Position numbers and translations under genes: made by a program. Below, piece by piece: positions 1 to 13,764 of a stretch of DNA of 13,974 bases (position 1 is the stretch's first letter; every line of letters begins with the position of its first letter). Where the stretch lies: IMG/VR virus record IMGVR_UViG_2531839579_000009; one strand, written 5' to 3'. The notes beneath the pieces are model-generated. The model was not told the DNA's origin. It saw nothing but the letters and a program-made list of their open reading frames with translations, and did no database searches. This DNA is from a virus. Lineage: Duplodnaviria; Heunggongvirae; Uroviricota; Caudoviricetes.

Positions 1-1577
1 CGTGGAAAATTGTCCGTAAAGGCAGGCATCAAGTTCCTGCTCCGACATGCCTGCGGGCAAAGGCCACGAAAGGCCAGCTCTCCGAAAGCGCACGAACATA
101 CTACAAACTGTTGATTTTGGTACACCCAGGCGACGCCCGGCCACAACCCGGGGTAAATGTTCTTCAAAGTGAAGACGTAAAGCTTCAGTGATCCAGGTCC
201 GGTGTTTCATACGATAGTGTCCATTAAAAATGATGGACATTATTTTTGTAGAGCCGGAGGAAACAGACCAGACGGTTTAAATGAGCCGGTTACAAAGCCA
301 GTGAGGCGGCGTATCTACTTTGCCCGCACTGCAGCGGCATTATCACTGCGGAGAAAAAGCGTGAGCTCAATAGTGCAGGAGTCTGGTTGCGTGAAGGGCA
401 GGTCATTGATCGTAACGGCAACGTTTCCGGTGAACCGCGCCGCTCCCGTATCGCCAGTTTCTGGATGGAAGGGCCAGCTGCTGCGTATCAGACCTGGGCG
501 CAACTGGTTTACAAATTACTGACTGCAGAACAGGAGTATGAAGCGACAGGAAGCGAAGAAACACTCAGGGCGGTTATCAACACCGACTGGGGATTGCCTT
601 ATCTTCCTCGTGCCAGCATGGAGCAACGAAAAAGTGAATTGCTTGAGCAGCGGGCAGAGCCAGTTCCTTCCCGCAGTGTGCCGGATGGCGTTAATTTCCT
701 TGTGGCGACAGTGGATGTGCAGGCGGGACGTCATCGCCGTTTTGTGGTTCAGGTAACGGGCTATGGCAGCCGTGGCGAACGCTGGATTATTGATCGTTAC
801 AACATCACGCAGTCATTGCGCGGTGACAGCGACGGGGAGAGCCAGCGAATTGATCCGGCCAGCTATCCGGAAGACTGGGATGTCCTGCTGACGGATGTTT
901 TTCATAAAAGCTGGCCGCTGGCCTCCGATCCTTCTCAACAAATGCGACTGATGGCAATGGCGGTGGACTCCGGCGGTGAAGACGGGGTCACTGATAATGC
1001 CTATAAATTCTGGCGTCGTTGCCGTCGTGATGGCCTTGGTAAACGTATTTACCTGTTTAAGGGCGACAGCATCCGGCGCGCAAAACTGATCACCCGTACA
1101 TTCCCTGATAACACCGGACGAACGGGCCGACGGGCGCAGGCCGCAGGTGATGTGCCGCTCTGGCTTCTTCAGACGGATGCCCTGAAAGATCGGGTGAATA
1201 ACGCGTTATGGCGTGACTCGCCAGGTCCCGGCTATGTGCATTTCCCTGACTGGCTGGGGAGCTGGTTTTACGACGAACTGACGTATGAAGAGCGGAGCAG
1301 TGACGGGAAATGGAGTAAGCCGGGTCGCGGTGCCAACGAAGCTTTTGACCTGATGGTGTATGCCGAGGCTCTGGTCATTCTGCATGGATACGAAAAGATC
1401 CGCTGGCCGGATGCACCGGAGTGGGCGAGCCGGGAAACCTGGCTGGAGTGTGTCCCGGACAGTACCGAACCGTCACCCTCACCGGAACCGGTATCCACGC
1501 CTGTTAAAAAACAAAAACGGAAGAAAACAGTAACTGACGATGTTAACCCCTGGCTGACTTCCGGAGGATGGTTATGA
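1..1577 (+). CDS. A: Terminase large subunit (lambda gpA-like), 5'-partial at window edge. Intact frame only from about 286 to 1577; homologous upstream segments lie in other frames.
   Basis: ORF 387..1577 translation (…WLREGQVIDRNG…FLVATVDVQAGRHRRFVVQVTGYG…WIIDRYNI…) aligns with the C-terminal half of lambda gpA as I recall it. A CPHC motif is in the same frame at about 313-324, upstream of the first ATG. Frames 0 and 1 are both open in different parts of 1-300. Confidence 0.8.
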
Positions 1578-1786: not shown

Positions 1787-3292
1787 TGGCAATTCTTGAT
1801 GATGTGATTGGCGTTTTTTCACCAGGATGGAAAGCGGCAAGGCTGCGTTCCCGTGCGGTGATCCAGGCTTATGAGGCCGTAAAAACGACGCGGACACACA
1901 AAGCCCGACGGGAGAACAGAACTGCCGACCAGTTAAGCCAGTACGGGGCCGTGTCGTTACGTGAGCAGGCCCGTTACCTTGATAACAACCACGATCTGGT
2001 TATTGGTGTATTTGACAAGCTGGAAGAACGGGTGGTGGGGAAAAACGGGATTATTGTCGAGCCACATCCGGTATTACGCAATGGGGCCATTGCCCGTGAT
2101 CTGGCAGCGGAGATACGTACCCGATGGAGTGAATGGTCTGTCAGCCGGAGTCACCGGGCAGTTTACCCGTCCGATGCTGGAACGTCTGATGCTGCGTACC
2201 TGGCTGCGCGATGGTGAGGTGTTTGCCCAGATGGTTTCCGGGCGCATAAACAGCCTGACGCCTTCTGCCGGTGTTCATTTCTGGCTGGAGGCGCTCGAGC
2301 CGGACTTTATTCCCATGACCAGTGATGAGAGCAACAGGCTGAATCAGGGCGTGTTTGTTGATGACTGGGGGCGTCCCGAAAAATATCTGGTGTATAAAAG
2401 TCGTCCTGTATCCGGACGGCAGATGGAAACCAAAGAAGTGGATGCAGAGCGAATGCTGCATCTTAAATTTGTTCGCCGTCTGCACCAGATGCGCGGGACG
2501 TCTTTATTGTCCGGTGTGCTGATCCGCCTCAGCGCCCTGAAAGAGTATGAAGATTCTGAGCTGACTGCAGCAAGGGTCGCCGCTGCTCTGGGGATGTACA
2601 TCCGCAAAGGCGACGGACAGAGCTATGAAACGGATGGTAATTACAGCAAGGAGAAGGAACGCGAGCTTACCATTCAGCCAGGCATTATTTACGATGATCT
2701 GAAACCCGGCGAAGAAATCGGAATGGTGAAGTCGGATCGCCCCAATCCTAACCTTGAAACTTTTCGTAATGCTCAGTTGCGTGCCGTGGCGGCGGGCAGT
2801 CGTCTGAGTTTTTCCAGTACAGCGCGCAACTATAACGGCACTTACAGCGCCCAGCGTCAGGAGCTGGTTGAATCCACTGATGGCTACCTGATCCTGCAGG
2901 ACTGGTTTATTGGTGCCGTCACCCGCCCGATGTATCGTGCATGGCTGAAACAGGCTGTGGCATCCGGTGTTATCAGGCTACCCCGCGATCTTGACCGTTC
3001 TTCACTGTATACCGCGGTGTATTCCGGACCAGTGATGCCGTGGATTGACCCTGTTAAGGAGGCTGAGGCCTGGAAAATCCAGATTCGTGGTGGAGCGGCG
3101 ACAGAATCAGACTGGGTACGTGCTGGTGGTCGTAATCCGGATGATGTCAAACGTCGGCGCAAGGCCGAAATTGATGAAAACCGCAAGCTGGACCTAGTAT
3201 TTGATACCGATCCGGCCAGTGATAAAGGAGGCAGTAGTGCCGCAACGAAACGACAGGAGCCGCAGCACACCGACGACCAGTCCGAAGATTAA
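1786..3292 (+). pseudogene. Phage portal protein, reading frame broken near 2140-2155 in this sequence
   Basis: ORFs 1714..2217 (frame 1) and 1961..3292 (frame 2) together form one portal-sized protein of about 500 aa. The switch occurs within agccggagtcaccggg. Position directly after gpW and before the prohead protease fits a portal. Confidence 0.8.
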
Positions 3293-3305
3293 TTCCTGGT
3301 TCAGG

Positions 3306-5264
3306 ATGCAGGCTGGTCACCAGAGTGACGCGGATATTTATATTTATGACGAGATTGGTTTCTGGGGTGTTACAGCGAAGCAGTTTATCAGTGATCTGAA
3401 TGCACTGGGCGATATCACCCACATTAATCTCCATATTAATTCACCGGGTGGCGATGTCTTTGAAGGCATCGCCATTTTTAATGCGCTGAAAACACATGGT
3501 GCGTCCATTACCGTTTATGTCGACGGTGTGGCGGCGTCAATGGCGTCGGTCATTGCGATGGTGGGAAATCCGGTCATTATGCCGGAAAACACCTTCATGA
3601 TGATTCATAAACCATTTGGCTTTACGGGCGGTGATGCGGAGGACATGCGCACCTATGCCGACCTGCTCGATAAAGTTGAGGCGGTTCTGTTACCCGCTTA
3701 TGCACAGAAAACCGGGAAAACCACCGATGAAATTGCTGCCATGCTGGCGGATGAGACCTGGATGTCCGGTGCCGAATGTCTGGCACAGGGATTTGCTGAT
3801 CAGGTGACGCCAGCCGTTAAGGCAATGGCATGTATTCAGTCAAAACGTACAGAGGAATTTAAAAAGATGCCGGAATCCATTCGAAACATGATTACTCCGC
3901 CACGCAACAGTGCTCCACGCGTACAGGATGATGAACCTGCAGCCTCCCGGACGCCAGTGCAGGCAGCAGCACCCGTGGTGGATGAAAACAGTATCCGTGC
4001 GCAGGTACTGGCAGAGCAAAAAGCGCGTGTAAACGGTATTAATGATCTGTTTGCCATGTTTGGCGGGCGTTATCAGACGCTGCAGGCTCAGTGTCTTGCC
4101 GATCCTGAATGTTCGCTGGAACAGGCCCGCGAAAAGCTGTTGAACGAGATGGGGCGCGAGTCCACGCCATCCAATAAAAATACCCCGGCTCATATTTATG
4201 CCGGTAACGGTAATTTTGTGGGGGACGGGATCCGCCAGGCGCTGATGGCGCGTGCCGGATTTGAAAAAACCGAACGTGATAATGTCTACAACGGGATGAC
4301 CCTGCGTGAATATGCCCGTATGTCACTGACTGAACGGGGTATTGGGGTTTCCAGTTATAACCCGATGCAGATGGTCGGTGCGGCGTTCACACACAGTACG
4401 TCTGACTTCGGTAATATTCTGCTGGATGTTGCGAACAAAGCCATTCTGCAGGGCTGGGAAGATGCCCCTGAAACCTATGAACAGTGGACGCGGAAAGGTC
4501 AGTTGTCTGATTTTAAAATTGCCCATCGTGTGGGTATGGGGGGCTTCAGTGCTCTGCGTCAGGTGCGTGAAGGGGCGGAATATAAATACGTCACCACCGG
4601 AGATAAACAGGCCACTATTGCACTGGCGACCTATGGCGAGCTGTTCAGTATCACCCGTCAGGCCATTATCAATGATGATCTGAATATGCTGACCGATGTC
4701 CCGATGAAACTGGGCCGTGCGGCGAAATCCACTATTGCCGATCTGGTTTATGCCATTCTGACGTCTAACCCGAAAATCTCCACAGATAATGTAAGTCTGT
4801 TCGATAAAGCGAAACATGCAAACGTACTGGAGAGCGCTGCAATGGACGTGGCATCGCTGGATAAAGCCCGCCAGTTGATGCGCGTTCAGAAAGAGGGGGA
4901 GCGTCATCTGAATATTCGTCCTGCGTTCGTACTGGTACCGACGGCGATGGAGTCTGTTGCTAACCAGGTCATTCGCTCCTCAAGTGTCAAGGGGGCTGAC
5001 ATTAACGCCGGTATTATTAACCCGGTGAAAGATTTTGCGACCGTTATTGCAGAGCCTCGTCTTGATGATAACAGCCTGACCACCTTCTACCTGGCTGCGT
5101 CAAAAGGCTCCGATACGATTGAAGTGGCTTATCTCAACGGTGTGGATACGCCATATATTGATCAGATGGAGGGCTTCAGTGTGGATGGCGTGACAACGAA
5201 AGTGCGTATTGACGCCGGTGTCGCGCCAGTTGATCACCGCGGTCTGGTGAAATGTACGGCGTAA
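3306..5264 (+). CDS. Fused prohead protease (ClpP/S14-like) - linker/scaffold-like region - major capsid protein (Mu gpT-like), single 652-aa ORF
   Basis: The N-terminal ~170 aa (…INSPGGDVFEGIAIFNALK…VDGVAASMASVIAMVG…) looks like a ClpP-family serine protease core. The middle is a low-complexity Q/A/E-rich segment. The C-terminal ~350 aa resembles Mu-like major head subunits. ATG 3306 is in frame, just after the portal stop at 3290-3292. No internal stop. Confidence 0.8.
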   Translation: MQAGHQSDADIYIYDEIGFWGVTAKQFISDLNALGDITHINLHINSPGGDVFEGIAIFNALKTHGASITVYVDGVAASMASVIAMVGNPVIMPENTFMMIHKPFGFTGGDAEDMRTYADLLDKVEAVLLPAYAQKTGKTTDEIAAMLADETWMSGAECLAQGFADQVTPAVKAMACIQSKRTEEFKKMPESIRNMITPPRNSAPRVQDDEPAASRTPVQAAAPVVDENSIRAQVLAEQKARVNGINDLFAMFGGRYQTLQAQCLADPECSLEQAREKLLNEMGRESTPSNKNTPAHIYAGNGNFVGDGIRQALMARAGFEKTERDNVYNGMTLREYARMSLTERGIGVSSYNPMQMVGAAFTHSTSDFGNILLDVANKAILQGWEDAPETYEQWTRKGQLSDFKIAHRVGMGGFSALRQVREGAEYKYVTTGDKQATIALATYGELFSITRQAIINDDLNMLTDVPMKLGRAAKSTIADLVYAILTSNPKISTDNVSLFDKAKHANVLESAAMDVASLDKARQLMRVQKEGERHLNIRPAFVLVPTAMESVANQVIRSSSVKGADINAGIINPVKDFATVIAEPRLDDNSLTTFYLAASKGSDTIEVAYLNGVDTPYIDQMEGFSVDGVTTKVRIDAGVAPVDHRGLVKCTA

Positions 5265-5953: not shown

Positions 5954-6535
5954 ATGAAGGGGCTTGAGAATGCTATCCGCAATCTGAACAGCCTTGATAC
6001 CCGTATGGTGCCACAGGCCAGCGCATGGGCGATAAACCGTGTGGCACAGAAAGCGGTCTCGGTCGCCACCCGGCAGGTTGCCGGGAATACCGTTGCGGGA
6101 GATAACCAGGTGAAAGGGATCCCCCTGAAACTGGTACGTCAGCGTGTCCGGGTGTTTAAAGCCAGTCCGTCAGGAAAAATGACGGCCAGGATCCGCGTTA
6201 ACCGGGGCAATCTGCCCACCATCAAGCTGGGGACAGCCCGGGTCAGACTGGCCCGGCGTGGTGGAAAACTGCAGTACCGTGGCAGTATTCAGCAACTGGC
6301 GAATGGCCGCTGGCATGTTCTGAGGCGTCTTCCTGAAGCGCGTTTTGCAACAGGGCATGTGATGCGGCGTATTGATGGCAAAAATCGTTACCCCATTGAT
6401 GTGGTGAAAGTCCCGCTGTCCGGACCGCTGACACAAGCATTTGAAGATGCCCGCGACCGCATTATTGCTGCGGAAATGCCGAAACAGCTGGGGTATGCAC
6501 TGAAACAACAACTGAGGTTATGGCTGACCCGATGA
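5954..6535 (+). CDS. Z: Minor tail protein Z (tail completion)
   Basis: 193 aa. MKGLENAIRNLNSL…NGRWHV…KNRYPIDVVK…LGYAL…QLR matches lambda gpZ (192 aa) along its length. AGAGG sits 6 nt upstream. Confidence 0.9.
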   Translation: MKGLENAIRNLNSLDTRMVPQASAWAINRVAQKAVSVATRQVAGNTVAGDNQVKGIPLKLVRQRVRVFKASPSGKMTARIRVNRGNLPTIKLGTARVRLARRGGKLQYRGSIQQLANGRWHVLRRLPEARFATGHVMRRIDGKNRYPIDVVKVPLSGPLTQAFEDARDRIIAAEMPKQLGYALKQQLRLWLTR

Positions 6536-6941: not shown

Positions 6942-7681
6942 ATGACCACACCAAATCCACTGGCAAAAACGAAAGGTGCGGGAACGACGTTCTGGATGTA
7001 ACCGGCAAGGCGATGCGTTTGCGAACCCTTTTCGGACACTGACTGGTGCGTCTTGCGATGGTGAAGGATCTGCAACCTGGCGAAATGACCGCTGATGCAG
7101 AAGATGACACTTATCTCGATGATGAAGATGCAGACTGGAAAACGACAACCCAGGGGCAGAAATCCGTCGGTGATACTTCGGCGACGCTGGCCTGGCGTCC
7201 GGGGGACAGCGGGCAGAAAAAACTGGTTCAGTTGTTCGACTCCGGTGAAGTCTGCGCGTTTCGTATCAAATATCCCAACGGTACTGTTGATGTTTTCCGT
7301 GGCTGGCTGAGTTCACTGGGTAAAACCATTGCCTCAAAAGACGTGATGACCCGCACCGTGAAAATCAGCGGTGTGGGGCGTCCGTATCTGGCAGAGGAAG
7401 GCACTGAAACCGTGGGCGTTACCGGGCTGACGGTGGCACCGGCATCTGCCAGTGTAAAAGTGGGAGCAACCACCACGCTGACCTTTACAGTAAAACCTGA
7501 CGGAGCCAGTGACAAAGCGATCAGTGTGCATTCGACAGATCCACAGACTGCCACGGTGACCCTGAACGGGCTTGTGGCCACGGTGAAAGGCGTGAAGCAG
7601 GGCAGTGTCAGCATTGTGGGCATGACTTCTGACGGCGATTTTGTGGCCGTGGCTGCGGTGGCTGTCAGCGCCGCAGGTTAA
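6942..7681 (+). pseudogene. V: Major tail tube protein V with C-terminal Ig-like domain; four frame breaks within 6998-7049
   Basis: AGGAGG at 6931-6936, ATG 6942. MTTPNPLAKTKGAGTTFWM runs into a stop at 6999. Homology to lambda gpV then continues in frame 2, frame 1, frame 0 and back to frame 2 from 7049 to the stop at 7679-7681. Confidence 0.85.
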
Positions 7682-7701
7682 CAGGACGATACTCATCATT
7701 T

Positions 7702-7725
7702 GCCCCGGTTATCCGGGGCTTTTTT
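7702..7725 (+). terminator. Rho-independent terminator after gene V
   Basis: GCCCCGG-TTAT-CCGGGGC (7-bp GC-rich stem) followed by T6, 21 nt after the V stop. Confidence 0.7.
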
Positions 7726-7741
7726 GCAGGTGGAGAACATG

Positions 7742-8128
7742 ATGTTTCTGAAACAGGGCTCGTTTAATTATGAAAAGCAGTCCGTGGTGCTCAGTGAGCT
7801 GTCCGGGCTGCAGAGAATTGAATATCTGGCGTTTGTTCAGCAGCGAACGGCAAAGTTTGATGCCGAAGAGGGAGAACTGCCGGAGGCTGAACGACAGATT
7901 GCTTTTCTGCGGATGGGGATGGATATCAATGCCTGGCTGGTTTCCCGCTCACTGTGGAATGCGGATCAGTCTAAGGATGTAGAGACGCTTTGCGCATCCG
8001 TTATTACAACATGGTCGTATGATGCCCTGGGTGCGGGGGCGGAGATGGTTCTGTCGCTGAGCGGTATGGGGGCCATTGATAATGCCGGGGATGATGAGCA
8101 TGAGGCGCTGACGCCGGAAAAGTCCTGA
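7742..8128 (+). CDS. G: Tail assembly chaperone G
   Basis: MFLKQGSFNYEKQSVVLSELSGLQRIEYLA… matches the lambda gpG N-terminus (MFLKTESFEHNGVTVTLSELSALQRIEHLA…). GGAG sits 6 nt upstream of ATG 7742. Stop at 8126-8128. Confidence 0.85.
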   Translation: MFLKQGSFNYEKQSVVLSELSGLQRIEYLAFVQQRTAKFDAEEGELPEAERQIAFLRMGMDINAWLVSRSLWNADQSKDVETLCASVITTWSYDALGAGAEMVLSLSGMGAIDNAGDDEHEALTPEKS

Positions 8129-8465
8129 CGCGGGAAATGCAGTTTGTCATGCGGCTTGCCCGGGAGTTCCGGCGGGCAGACTGGCGGCGGATGCTGTCGG
8201 AAATGTCGGCCACTGAGCTTGGTGAGTGGGGCGATTATTTCCGGATGCAGAGCTTCAGTGATGTGTGGATGGATGCGCAGTTTGCCTCGCTGAAGGCATT
8301 GATCGTGAGAATGGTGTCCGGCAGCAGTGATGCTGCGGTGGCTGATTTCAGCCTTTTACCGGAAGAGAACGGGATACCGGAGCGAACGGACGAAGAACTG
8401 ATGCATCTTGGGAAGGTATTTCCGGAGGTGTGCGTTATGGACCAGATAGCCAACCTGGTCATTGA
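8104..8465 (+). CDS. T: gpT segment of the G-T tail assembly chaperone (expressed only as a G-T fusion by -1 frameshift). 3' end uncertain: as written the frame reads through into H.
   Basis: The -1 frame relative to G encodes …REFRRADWRRMLSEMSATELGEWGDYFRMQSFSD…, which I recognise as gpT-like. There is no stop in this frame before 9615. A plausible gpT C-terminus (…GGVRYGPD… with stop at 8463-8465) is in another frame from about 8410. Confidence 0.5.
8116..8122 (+). promoter_or_regulatory. Candidate -1 programmed ribosomal frameshift site (G GAA AAG) for the G-T fusion
   Basis: Heptamer in the G frame 4 nt before the G stop. The -1 frame is open from 8104 and encodes a gpT-like sequence. 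Lambda uses G GGA AAG at the equivalent place. Confidence 0.5.
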
Positions 8466-11400
8466 TTTGGGGATTGATGCGGCAGAGTTTAAAAATGAAA
8501 TTCCCCGTATCAAAAACCTTCTGAATGGTGCCGCCAGCGATGCAGAACGGTCTTCTGCCCGTATGCAGCGTTTTATGGAGCGTCAGACTCAGGCCGCCCG
8601 GCAGACAACGCAGGCGGCTTCTTCGGCTGCAACAGCCGCCTCCGTCCATGCGCAGACGGTGGAGAAGAACGCACAGGCTCATGAACGCATGGCCCGCGAG
8701 GTGGAGAAAACCCGCCAGCGCATGGAGGCGCTGAGCCAGAAAATGCGCGATGAACAGGCGCAGGCCATGGCTCTGGCGGAGGCTCAGGATAAAGCGGCTG
8801 CTGCGTTTTATCGTCAGATTGACAGTGTGAAACAGGCCAGTGCGGGGCTGCAGGAATTACAGCGTATTCAGCAGCAGATCCGACAGGCCAGAAACAGTGG
8901 CGGGATTGGTCAGCAGGATTATCTGGCGCTGATTTCTGAGGTTACGGCGAAAACCCGTGTTCTTACACAGGCTGAGGAAGAGGCTACCCGACAGAAAGTG
9001 GCGTTTATCCGTCAGCTTAAAGAGCAGGCAACCCGCCAGAATCTTTCTTCTTCTGAGTTGCTTCGTGCTAAGGCTGCCCAGCTGGGGGTAAGCAGTGCTG
9101 CAGAAGTGTATATCCGCAAAATGGAGCAGGCAGGAAAAGCCACGCATTCGCTGGGTCTGAAAAGTGCAGCGGCCCGTCAGGAGATAGGCGTTCTGATAGG
9201 TGAACTGGCCCGCGGCAATTTAGGTGCGCTGAGGGGATCCGGAATAACGCTGGCTAACCGTGCCGGGTGGATAGACACATTGATGTCACCGAAAGGCATG
9301 ATGCTTGGCGGGGTTATTGGCGGTATTGCCGCGGCTGTCTATGGTCTGGGTAAAGCCTGGTATGACGGTCAGAAGGAGGGGGAAGAATTTAACCGCCAGC
9401 TGTCGCTGACGGGGCATTATGCCGGAGTCACTGCCGGGCAGCTGTGGACGCTCAGTCGTGCTATTTCCGGGAATGGTATCACGCAACATGCTGCAGCCGG
9501 TGCGCTGGCTCAGGTGGTGGGGAGTGGTGCATTTCGTGGAAACGATATCGGTATGGTGGCGAGAGTGCCGCACAGATGGAGCGATCGGTTGGCCAGTCGG
9601 TCAGCGATACCATAAGTCAGTTTAAGCGGCTGAAGGATGATCCTGTAAATGCCGCGAAGGCTCTGGACAATGAGCTGCATTTTCTTACTGCCACTCAGCT
9701 TGAGCAGATACGCGTCCTTGGGGAGCAGGGGCGGTCCAGTGATGCTGCACGGATAGCCATGTCTGCACTGGCAGAGGAAACCGGTCGGCGTACTGCGGAT
9801 ATTGATAATAACCTCAATGCGCTTGGCAGTACGCTGAAGTATCTGTCTGATTTGTGGAGTCGTTTCTGGGATGCGGCCATGAATATTGGTCGTGAAGACT
9901 CGCTGGATGAACAGATTGCCGCTTTACAGGAGAAAGTGTCGCGGGCGAAAAGACTCCCCTGGACGGCATCATCTTCTCAGGTTGAATACGATCAGCAGCG
10001 TCTTAACGATCTTCAGGAGAAAAAACGCCAGAAGGATTTGCAGGATGCAAAAGAGCAGGCAGAGCGGAATTATCAGGAGCAACAGAAACGCCGTAATGCT
10101 GAAAATGCTGCACTGAACCGGATGAATGAAACGGAAGCAGCACGACATCAGCGTGAAATTGCGCGTATTAATGCCATGCAGTACGCCGATCAGGCTGTCA
10201 GGGATGCGGCGATACAACGTGAAAATGAACGTTACGAGAAAGCCCTGGCATCCGGTAAGAAAAAAACACGCGAAACCCGTAATGATGAGGCCACCCGGTT
10301 ATTGCTGCAGTACAGTCAGCAACAGGCACAGGTGGAAGGACAGATTGCTGCTGCAGACAGTCAGCAGGCATTGCCACTGACAGGATGACAGAAGCGCATA
10401 AACAGCTTCTGGCTCTGCAGCAGCGCATCAGCGACCTGGACGGGAAAAAACTGACGGCAGATGAAAAGAGTGTGCTGGCCCGTAAAGATGAACTGATTCA
10501 GGCACTGACGCTGCTGGATGTAAAACAGCAGGAGCTTCAGAAACAGACGGCACTCAACGATCTGAAGAAAAAAACAATTCAGCTGACCAGTCAACTGGCT
10601 GAAGAAGAGCGCGCTCAGCGTCAGCAACATGACCTGGATATCGCCACGGTGGGTATGGGTGATCAGCAGCGGCAGCGATATCAGGTACAACTGAGTCTTC
10701 GCCAGAAATACCAGCAACAGCTGGAGCAGTTGAGGCGGGATAGTGAGCAGAAAGGAACATATAACACGGATGACTACAGAAAGGCCGAGCAGGCGCTGAC
10801 GGAGAGCCTGAACCGACAACTGAATGAGAATCGCCGTTACTGGCAACAGCTTGAAGTTGCTCAGGGTGACTGGAAAAACGGAGTCCTGCGTGCACTCCAG
10901 AATGTCACTGAGGAAGCGGATAACACGGCAGAAACAGCAGAACAGGTGTTCTCGTCAGCCTTCAGCAACATGGGAAATGGCCTGGCAACTTTTGTCACTA
11001 CCGGCAAACTCAATTTCAAATCCTTCACCTCTTCTGTGCTGTCAGATATGGCGAAAATCCTGGCGCAGATAGCTTTAATGAAAGCGGTAAAAGGTATTGC
11101 TTCCGCGCTGCCTTTTGATCTTGTAGCCAATGCTGATGGCGGTGTTTATCAGTCGGCTGATTTGAGTCGCTACAGTGGCACGGTGGTTAACCGTCCGACG
11201 TTTTTTGCTTTTGCAAAAGGCGCGGGTGTGATGGGGGAAGCGGGACCTGAAGCCATTCTGCCATTGCGTCGTGGTGCTGACGGTAAGCTGGGGGTTGTGG
11301 CGGATATTGGGGGTTCAGGTATGGCGATGTTTGCCCCGCAGTACAACATCGAGATCAATAACGATGGCACGAACGGGCAGATAGGTCCGGCTGCCCTGAA

Positions 11401-11491
11401 GGCGGTTTATGACCTCGGGAAAAAAGCGGCAGCGGACTTTATGCAACAGCAGGCCCGTGATGGTGGTCGGTTAAGTGGAGCATATCGGTAA
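8437..11491 (+). pseudogene. H: Tail tape measure protein H (about 1018 aa) with two frame breaks (about 9560 and 10384)
   Basis: Start MDQIANLVIDLGIDAAEFK matches the lambda gpH N-terminus. Three consecutive ORFs (8137..9615, 9444..10388, 10385..11491) in frames 1, 0 and 2 each continue the homology. C-terminus …NNDGTNGQIGPAALKAVYDLGKKAAADFMQQQARDGGRLSGAYR matches the lambda gpH end. Confidence 0.85.
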
Positions 11492-11829: not shown

Positions 11830-12495
11830 ATGCAGGATATTCCACAGGAAACACATCATGAGACGACACGCCTCACTCAGTCAGCCCAGGTGGTGCTCTG
11901 GGAAATCGATCTGACAGAGGTCGGTGGTGAACGTTATTTTTTCTGTAATGAGCAGAACGAAAAAGGTGAGCCGGTCACCTGGCAGGGGCGGCAGTATCAG
12001 GCATACCCCATTCAGGGGACGGGATTTGAACTGAACGGAAGGGCAGTGCTCCGCCACCTGACGGTTCTAACCTGACGGATGGTCACCGGGATGGCGGAAG
12101 ACTGCAGAGTCTGGTCGGCGGAACGGTGGTCGGCGTAAGGTTTACGCCCGTTTTCTGGATGCGGTGAACTTCGTCAACGGAAACAGAGCCGATCCGGAGC
12201 AGGAGGTGATCAGCCGCTGGCGCATGAGCAGTGAGCGAACTGAGGCGGTAGTGCCTCTTTGTCTTCCACCCGACGAAACGGATGGGCTGTTTTTCCGGGC
12301 GATCATGCTGGCCAACACCTGCACCTGGACCTATCGCGGGAGAGTGCGGTTATCGGTCCGGCGTCGCGGATGAATATGACCAGCCACGTCCGATATCACG
12401 AAGGATAAATGCAGCAAATGCCTGAGGGCTGTAAGTTTCGCAATAACGTCGGCAACTTTGGCGGCTTCCTTTCCATTAACAAACTTTCGCAGTAA
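11830..12495 (+). pseudogene. L: Minor tail protein L, multiply frame-broken between about 12039 and 12430
   Basis: AGGAGG sits 5 nt upstream. The first 69 aa (MQDI…VVLWEIDLTEVGGERYFFCNEQNEKGEPVTWQGRQYQ…ELNG) are near-identical to lambda gpL. After 12039, exact lambda-like peptides appear in alternating frames, ending in-frame with …GFLSINKLSQ and a stop at 12493-12495. Confidence 0.85.
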
Positions 12496-12499
12496 TCCC

Positions 12500-13226
12500 A
12501 TGACAAGACAGAATCAGCGATTCTGGCGCACGCCCGGCGATGTGCGCCAGCGGAGTCGTGCGGCTTCGTGGTGAGAACGCCGGAGGGGAAAGATATTTTC
12601 CCTGCGTGAATATCTCCGGTGAGCCGGAGGCGTATTTCCGGATGTCGCCGGAGGACTGGCTGCAGGCAGAATGCAGGGTGAGATTGTGGCGCTGGTCCAC
12701 AGCCACCCCGGTGGTCTGCCCTGGCTGAGTGAGGCGACCGGCGGCTGCAGGTGCAGAGTGATTTGCCGTGGTGGCTGGTCTGCCGGGGGCGATTCATAAT
12801 TCCGCTGTGTGCCGCATCTCACCGGGCGGCGCTTTGAGCACGGGGTGACGGACTGTTACACGCTGTTCCGGGAGCTTACATCTGGCGGGATTGAGATGCC
12901 GGATTTTCATCGCGGGGATACTGGTGGCGTCACGGTCAGAATCTCTATCTGGATAATCTGGAGGCCACAGGGCTGTATCAGGTGCCGTTGTCAGCGGCGC
13001 AGCCGGGCGATGTGCTGCTGTGCTGTTTTGGTTCATCGGTGCCGAATCATGCCGCCATTTACTGGGGACGGGAGCTGCTGCACCATATTCCTGAACAACT
13101 GAGAAACGAGAGAGGTATACCGACAAATGGCAGCGACGCACACACTCCCTCTGGCGTCACCGGGATGGCACGCATCTGCCTTTACGGGGATTTCAACGAT
13201 TTGGCCGCCGCATCGACCTTCGGTGA
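12500..13226 (+). pseudogene. K: Tail tip assembly protein K (JAMM/MPN plus NlpC/P60-type domains), multiply frame-broken
   Basis: MTRQNQRFWR… start. Lambda gpK-like peptides (CGFVVR; GGERYFPCVNIS…EAYFRMSPEDWLQAE; EIVALVHSHPGGLPWLSEA; DRRLQVQSDLPWWLVCRG; PHLTGRRFEHGVTDCYTLFR; GIEMPDFHR; NLYLDNLEATGLYQVPLSAAQPGDVLLCCFGSSVPNHAAIY…ELLHHIPEQL) are spread over all three frames. Confidence 0.8.
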
Positions 13227-13764
13227 AAACGGGGCGAAGCCATCCGGGCGCTGGCCATGCAGTCCCGGCGTTTCGTCAGAACTGAGCGACGGCTGGTATC
13301 AGGTACGCATTGCCGGGCGTGATGCAGGTGAAACCGAATTGTCTGCCCGTCTTAATGAGCCGCTGGCAAATGGTGCCGTGATCCAATCGTGCCGCGTCTG
13401 GCGGGAGCTAAAAGTGGCGGTGTGTTTCAGGTGGTGCTGGGGGCGGCGTTGATTGCGGTGGCATGGTGGAACCCTGTGGGCTGGCTGGGTGCCGCGGCTG
13501 TATCGGGCATGTATGCGGCAGGGGCCAGTATGATCCTGGGCGGGTGGCGCAGATGCTGGCACCGAAAGCCAGGACGCCACGGCAGCCAGTACAGATAACG
13601 GCAAACAGAACACCTATTTTTCCTCACTGGATAACATGGTTGCTCAGGGCAATGTTTTGCCTGTTCTGTACGGGGAAATGCGTGTGGGGTCGCGGGTGGT
13701 TTCTCAGGAGATCAGCACGGCAGACGAAGGGGACGGTGGTCAGGTTGTGGTGATTGGTCGCTGA
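13127..13764 (+). pseudogene. I: Tail tip assembly protein I, multiply frame-broken; overlaps the 3' end of K
   Basis: MAATHTLPLASPG start. MARICLYGD, QRFGRRIDLR, VKTG…PAFRQ, LSDGWYQVRIAGRD, AGAKSGGVFQVVLGAA, VAQMLAPKARTPR and DNGKQNTYFSSLDNMVAQGNVLPVLYGEMRVGSRVVSQEISTADEGDGGQVVVIGR match lambda gpI but in alternating frames. Stop at 13762-13764. Confidence 0.8.

Follow-up and report, generated by a model that had tools for sequence, protein, structure and literature searches.

Four frame breaks in the tail tube gene V of a lambdoid prophage contig, a very probable artefact of assembly consensus

The major tail tube gene V, a homologue of lambda gpV, is interrupted by four frame breaks near its 5' end in a stretch of prophage DNA of 13,974 nucleotides, the whole of which was analysed and is referred to here as the window. 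We conclude with high confidence that the four breaks are an assembly-consensus artefact, produced from collapsed paralogous lambdoid prophage modules. The breaks are present in the record and are almost certainly not a biological feature; in the real genome V is most likely intact. An earlier note on this DNA, made from the sequence alone, had implied that the phage gene V was inactivated. That implication was not supported by the analysis, as the missing bases fall on differences between alleles or paralogues and losses of this kind recur about 68 times across the contig as well as in four sister drafts. It was also unsupported by the complete genomes, none of which has the deletions.

Gene V as deposited and as repaired

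Translation from the ATG at 6942-6944 gives MTTPNPLAKTKGAGTTFWM and ends at a TAA codon at 6999-7001. The reading then continues in other frames as VTGK (6998-7009), GDAFANPF (7009-7032), SDTDWC (7032-7049) and RLAMVKDL... from 7049 onward. Direct reading of the window confirmed these coordinates and translations, which the earlier note had listed. The suggestion that the pieces can be concatenated, with one nucleotide shared at each junction, was right in substance; the residues at the junctions were slightly off when compared with the native protein, which reads ...FWMYTG(N/K)GDAFANPLSDTDWLRLAMVKDL. Alignment by BLAST to intact relatives placed four 1-base gaps in the gene (Table 1), in agreement with the proposal that exactly four 1-bp deletions break it. 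The reference for gap placement was L001, the prophage of ETEC strain 120899, which is the closest intact relative. All four breaks of the deposited ORF fall in the first 36 codons.

Table 1. Features of the window, with coordinates in the window
Feature	Position	Strand	Basis or remark
Whole window, contig AQBU01000050.1 of draft assembly GCA_000358575.2	1..13974	.	Contig record (L003) identical to the window
Two single-base losses splitting the portal gene	2145..2150	+	Sites where L001 and Ayreon differ (T/C, G/A)
Gene V for the major tail tube protein, homologous to lambda gpV, interrupted in the record	6942..7681	+	Repair, Pfam and PDB matches
V missing base 1	7000..7001	+	Natural alleles T or C; Tyr codon, third position
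V missing base 2	7008..7009	+	Natural alleles C or G; AAC Asn / AAG Lys, third position
V missing base 3	7031..7032	+	Natural alleles G or A; TTG / TTA Leu, third position
V missing base 4	7046..7047	+	Natural alleles T or C; TTG / CTG Leu, synonymous first position
Residual 211-aa ORF with GTG start, called as the V product	7046..7681	+	Gene calls
About 55 single-base (a few two-base) losses shredding L, K and I	12039..13577	+	Mostly third codon positions, allele-variable sites

When the four bases were put back, a single ORF of 247 aa was obtained, 246 of whose 247 residues are identical to V of the ETEC 120899 prophage. The repair by insertion of four bases, which had been put forward as a check, did restore one ORF; the predicted length of 246 aa was wrong, and the intact gene would be 744 nt long (247 aa and the stop codon). 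A single uninterrupted V ORF is present only after this restoration. It is absent from the record, where the stop codon and the four frame changes leave the full-length tube protein unencoded, as had been claimed.

The assignment of the gene as a lambda gpV homologue was borne out by the Pfam and PDB matches of the repaired ORF. The Pfam family Phage_TTP_12 (PF16461) was matched over its entire profile (224 bits, E = 5e-67, residues 18-152, profile positions 1-135 of 135), and a carboxyl-terminal Ig-like domain, Big_2, was found at residues 161-239 (E = 2.2e-11). The repaired ORF also matches PDB entry 2l04 (E = 5.7e-14) and can be aligned over the full length with solved tube proteins of the lambda type, such as 6p3e and 2k4q (E = 5e-89 to 7e-87). 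The repaired ORF has the same two-domain layout as lambda gpV and the same location between U and G/T, whereas the ORF deposited in the window is broken four times. The gene order Z-U-V-G-T-H was identified on the contig from the Pfam families of the called genes and the annotation of intact relatives.

The 211-aa remnant of V likewise matches Phage_TTP_12. An exact-protein look-up found this product on five contigs only, with the prefixes AQBU, AQBY, AQBX, AQBZ and AQCB. The first is the window, and the neighbouring prefixes AQBY, AQBX, AQBZ and AQCB belong to the sister draft assemblies GCA_000358655.2, GCA_000358635.2, GCA_000358675.2 and GCA_000359075.1. The same four gaps in V are present in all five of the five drafts.

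Just 3' of V, at 7688-7727, a G+C-rich hairpin is followed by a run of T (ccccggttatccggggctttttt). Its counterparts in phages Ayreon and mEp460 are annotated as intrinsic terminators following V.

Missing bases and allele-variable sites

Over the 150 nt that surround the start of V, five sites distinguish the intact allele of L001 from that of phage Ayreon. At exactly four of them (T/C, C/G, G/A and T/C) the base is absent from all five drafts, and at the fifth, L001 position 7141, it is lost from two of them. Over the whole gene the two alleles differ at 11 sites, and the probability that four random V sites would all be among them is 2.6e-8.

The losses are not confined to V. The comparison of the window with L001 gave 75 deletion events, 3 insertions and 169 mismatches. 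All 3 insertions and 12 of the 80 deleted bases sit in two allele-switch regions and are effects of the alignment. The indels at 6242-6368 in Z and at 10973-10996 in H were considered as deletions and rejected, being switches between divergent natural alleles. Once the two regions had been taken out of the count, about 68 missing bases and no true insertion were left. The losses touch the portal gene and genes U, V, T, H, L, K and I. The gene calls on the contig give a split portal gene, a truncated U, a T-H fusion, an H broken into three, and shredded L, K and I. The dense run of losses at 12039-12500 is accompanied by one substitution only relative to L001. The 75 deletion events fall at codon positions 3, 1 and 2 in the proportions 49/19/7, a skew that is expected because the differences between alleles are mostly synonymous.

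A panel of six natural alleles was employed, comprising Ayreon, cdtI, PhiR47_1, mEp460, the prophage of strain 025542-1 and the record CP025902.1. Substitutions among these alleles coincide with 58 of the 68 missing bases, when 5.9 ± 2.3 were expected at random and the maximum in 2,000 trials was 16. The other 10 of the 68 are on sites that are invariant in this small panel. The gaps that the sister drafts have of their own were also found on allele-variable sites (15/17, 7/7, 8/8 and 32/41).

The possibility was considered that the losses are random sequencing errors, unrelated to paralogues, of the kind that low coverage, homopolymer miscalls or a deletion-prone platform would give. The excess of deletions over insertions and the clustering of the losses do resemble low-quality regions. 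However, 53 of the 68 missing bases lie outside any homopolymer, the same positions recur in sister drafts that were assembled independently, and the coincidence with allele-variable sites is approximately ten-fold above chance. Random error was therefore judged to be very unlikely.

Several single losses have large effects on the gene calls outside V. The loss at 8412 joins the tail assembly protein T in frame to the tape measure protein (window 8137-11491), and those at 9566 and 10355 break up the tape measure gene, which is called as three ORFs (8149-9615, 9576-10388 and 10385-11491). The alleles of the natural panel vary at 8412. At 9566 (L001 position 9772) the sister drafts differ among themselves, and one natural allele varies as well.

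One record of the panel, CP025902.1 ('Escherichia phage 500465-3', 13,549 bp, deposited with no annotation), is listed publicly as a 'complete phage genome' but consists of a 13.5-kb piece of this tail module. Compared with L001 it shows 39 gap positions, at 91-96% identity, and it too may be a contig of low quality or a collapsed one, and not the genome of a phage.

Sister drafts, complete genomes and paralogous modules

Outside V, the losses differ among the sister drafts and only subsets of them are held in common. Where the window is without a base, the sister contigs often carry the L001 base in one draft and the alternative allele in another. Such splits were found at L001 positions 6779 (A/G), 6827 (G/A), 8617 (A/G), 9772 (C/T) and 12247 (T/C). 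L001 and the 025542-1 prophage differ at 275 sites, and scoring of these sites showed a different mosaic of the two alleles in each draft, with the gaps interspersed. Just downstream of the V gaps, at positions 7409, 7487 and 7517, the drafts are divided between the L001 and the Ayreon allele, and an Ayreon-like copy of V therefore contributed to these assemblies. The contig is bounded on the left by an IS66-family element and on the right by the start of the variable J gene.

The 72-nt deleted start of V gave 0 matches in an exact-pattern scan of the viral and genome contig collections, so the deleted version is absent from IMG/VR and from the GTDB species representatives. Complete genomes were searched with the 159-nt V start as the query, and the V deletions were present in none of the 2,000 places found in 1,835 complete E. 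coli genomes. The best match there was 97.5%, which corresponds to the four gaps.

These genomes also bear on programmed recoding, in which four successive -1 ribosomal shifts would give a full-length V. A -1 shift is formally needed at each junction, and one of the junctions reads C CCT TTT, a slippery-looking heptamer. However, this heptamer was created by the deletion itself, the native sequence being C CCT TTG or C CCT TTA, and a slippery motif of the form X XXY YYZ is absent at the other three junctions. Moreover, V is single-frame in all 2,000 copies in the complete genomes, the break is not conserved in homologues, and the missing bases are allele-variable wobble sites. Programmed recoding is effectively refuted.

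Paralogous copies of the tail module are present in related genomes. The closest complete genome, ETEC 120899, has three copies of the V-start segment. ETEC 203740 has two complete head-tail modules, at 2.20 and 3.21 Mb, with 2.5% of sites different between them. Of the 68 losses in the window, 26 are on differences between these two modules, as against 2.6 expected. Searches with the L gene of a sister draft, with a Bangladeshi prophage module and with the Ayreon-type V start had supplied natural alleles and this genome with its two modules. The two V alleles were not found together in ETEC 203740, the one genome with two modules that was compared, both copies being of the Ayreon type at the four sites. 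Among the E. coli genomes that carry the L/K tail-gene segment, the median is two copies per genome. The nearest intact relatives of V, at 98-99% DNA identity, are in the cdtI, mEp460 and Ayreon group and in ETEC prophages, not in lambda itself, and a single V ORF is annotated in all of the phage relatives. The phage is a member of the well-known cdtI/mEp460/Ayreon group.

The preferred explanation is that of a collapsed repeat. The source genome would have two or three lambdoid prophage head-tail modules that are about 97-98% identical, and the reads of these modules would have been merged into one draft contig. In columns where one allele is dominant, that allele would have been called, so that the contig would have become a mosaic of alleles. 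Columns with differing copies and no clear majority would have received no base in the consensus, leaving a 1-bp deletion each time. A candidate for this step is the splitting of a mismatch column into two gap-majority columns, both of which would then be voted out. Within V, four such columns in 50 bp near the 5' end would give the four apparent -1 frame switches. From the sequence comparisons we infer both the collapse in the source genome and the exact mechanism of the consensus. If the modules collapsed in this way, losses only, a bias toward wobble sites, no link to homopolymers and a contig bounded by repeats would follow. It would likewise follow that evenly balanced sites are common to the sister drafts and that other sites vary.

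The contig resembles known cases of collapsed-repeat consensus errors in draft assemblies in that it is bounded by repeats, is a mosaic of alleles and has its errors at paralogue-variant sites, and in that the pattern varies between sister assemblies of the same batch. Collapsed repeats usually yield chimeric or ambiguous base calls. Here, in contrast, columns without a clear majority appear to have been left out altogether, with series of 1-bp deletions and false frameshifts as the result.

One observation, taken by itself, counts against an artefact, since identical V losses in all five drafts could also mean clonal inheritance. A defective ETEC prophage may have gained real 1-bp deletions in V and in many other genes, with five related isolates then inheriting them. 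The same four V deletions in five assemblies are consistent with such decay. So is the damage that the prophage had already suffered from a real IS66 insertion in the terminase gene, the junction of which is common to complete ETEC genomes. Interrupted structural genes together with a real IS insertion in the terminase are features that the contig shares with the pseudogenes of cryptic or defective lambdoid prophages. The lesions are nevertheless at odds with mutational decay, all of them being losses of 1-2 bp at allele-variable wobble sites without accompanying substitutions. Real deletions would not be expected to hit the very substitution sites of other alleles, as these do at 4/4 sites in V and at 58/68 overall, nor to prefer third codon positions. 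True insertions, larger deletions and extra substitutions are all absent alongside the losses. Furthermore, the sister drafts have only subsets of the losses and show other alleles at the positions concerned. All these genes are intact in the complete genomes that share the IS66 junction, and the V deletions are in no complete genome. Genuine decay was accordingly rated as very improbable indeed. Still less probable, to the point of being extremely so, is that the deletions are real and were caused by a process that removed mismatched bases, such as faulty heteroduplex repair in gene conversion between paralogous prophages, and that the five isolates inherited them.

With the breaks read as errors of the consensus, the principal concern is data quality. 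This contig and the four sister contigs carry dozens of false frameshifts. The 211-aa 'V' is one example of the spurious truncated products that these frameshifts bring into public protein collections. Such frameshifts could be misread as prophage decay or as recoding. Single-base losses at synonymous allele-variable sites, without insertions and outside homopolymers, can serve as a diagnostic for artefacts of this class.

Other features of the contig

The contig starts inside an IS66-family element with tnpA on the minus strand, and the large terminase gene has lost its N-terminal part to this element (window 1-300 and 297-1577). The same junction was found in the complete genomes of ETEC 120899, 103605, 204446, 504237 and ETEC-2265. 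In contrast to the 1-bp losses, the lesion therefore looks genuine, and it would make the prophage defective.

In gene Z, at 6230-6410, the allele of the 025542-1/Ayreon type gives way to approximately 70 nt of the ETEC 120899 type and then returns, with the frame kept. Either natural recombination or a chimeric consensus drawn from two paralogues may account for the switch.

A programmed -1 frameshift between G and T of the lambda type is expected at the end of G, where the heptamer in lambda is G GGA AAG. In the window, G ends (8100-8130) with ...CCG GAA AAG TCC TGA, and T follows in another frame. The heptamer here is G GAA AAG and not the G GGA AAG of lambda.

The head protease and the major capsid protein are fused in an undamaged ORF of 675 aa at 3237-5264, with a ClpP-like protease and a Phage_capsid_4 domain. 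The fused ORF is also present in the intact relatives and is normal for this phage group.
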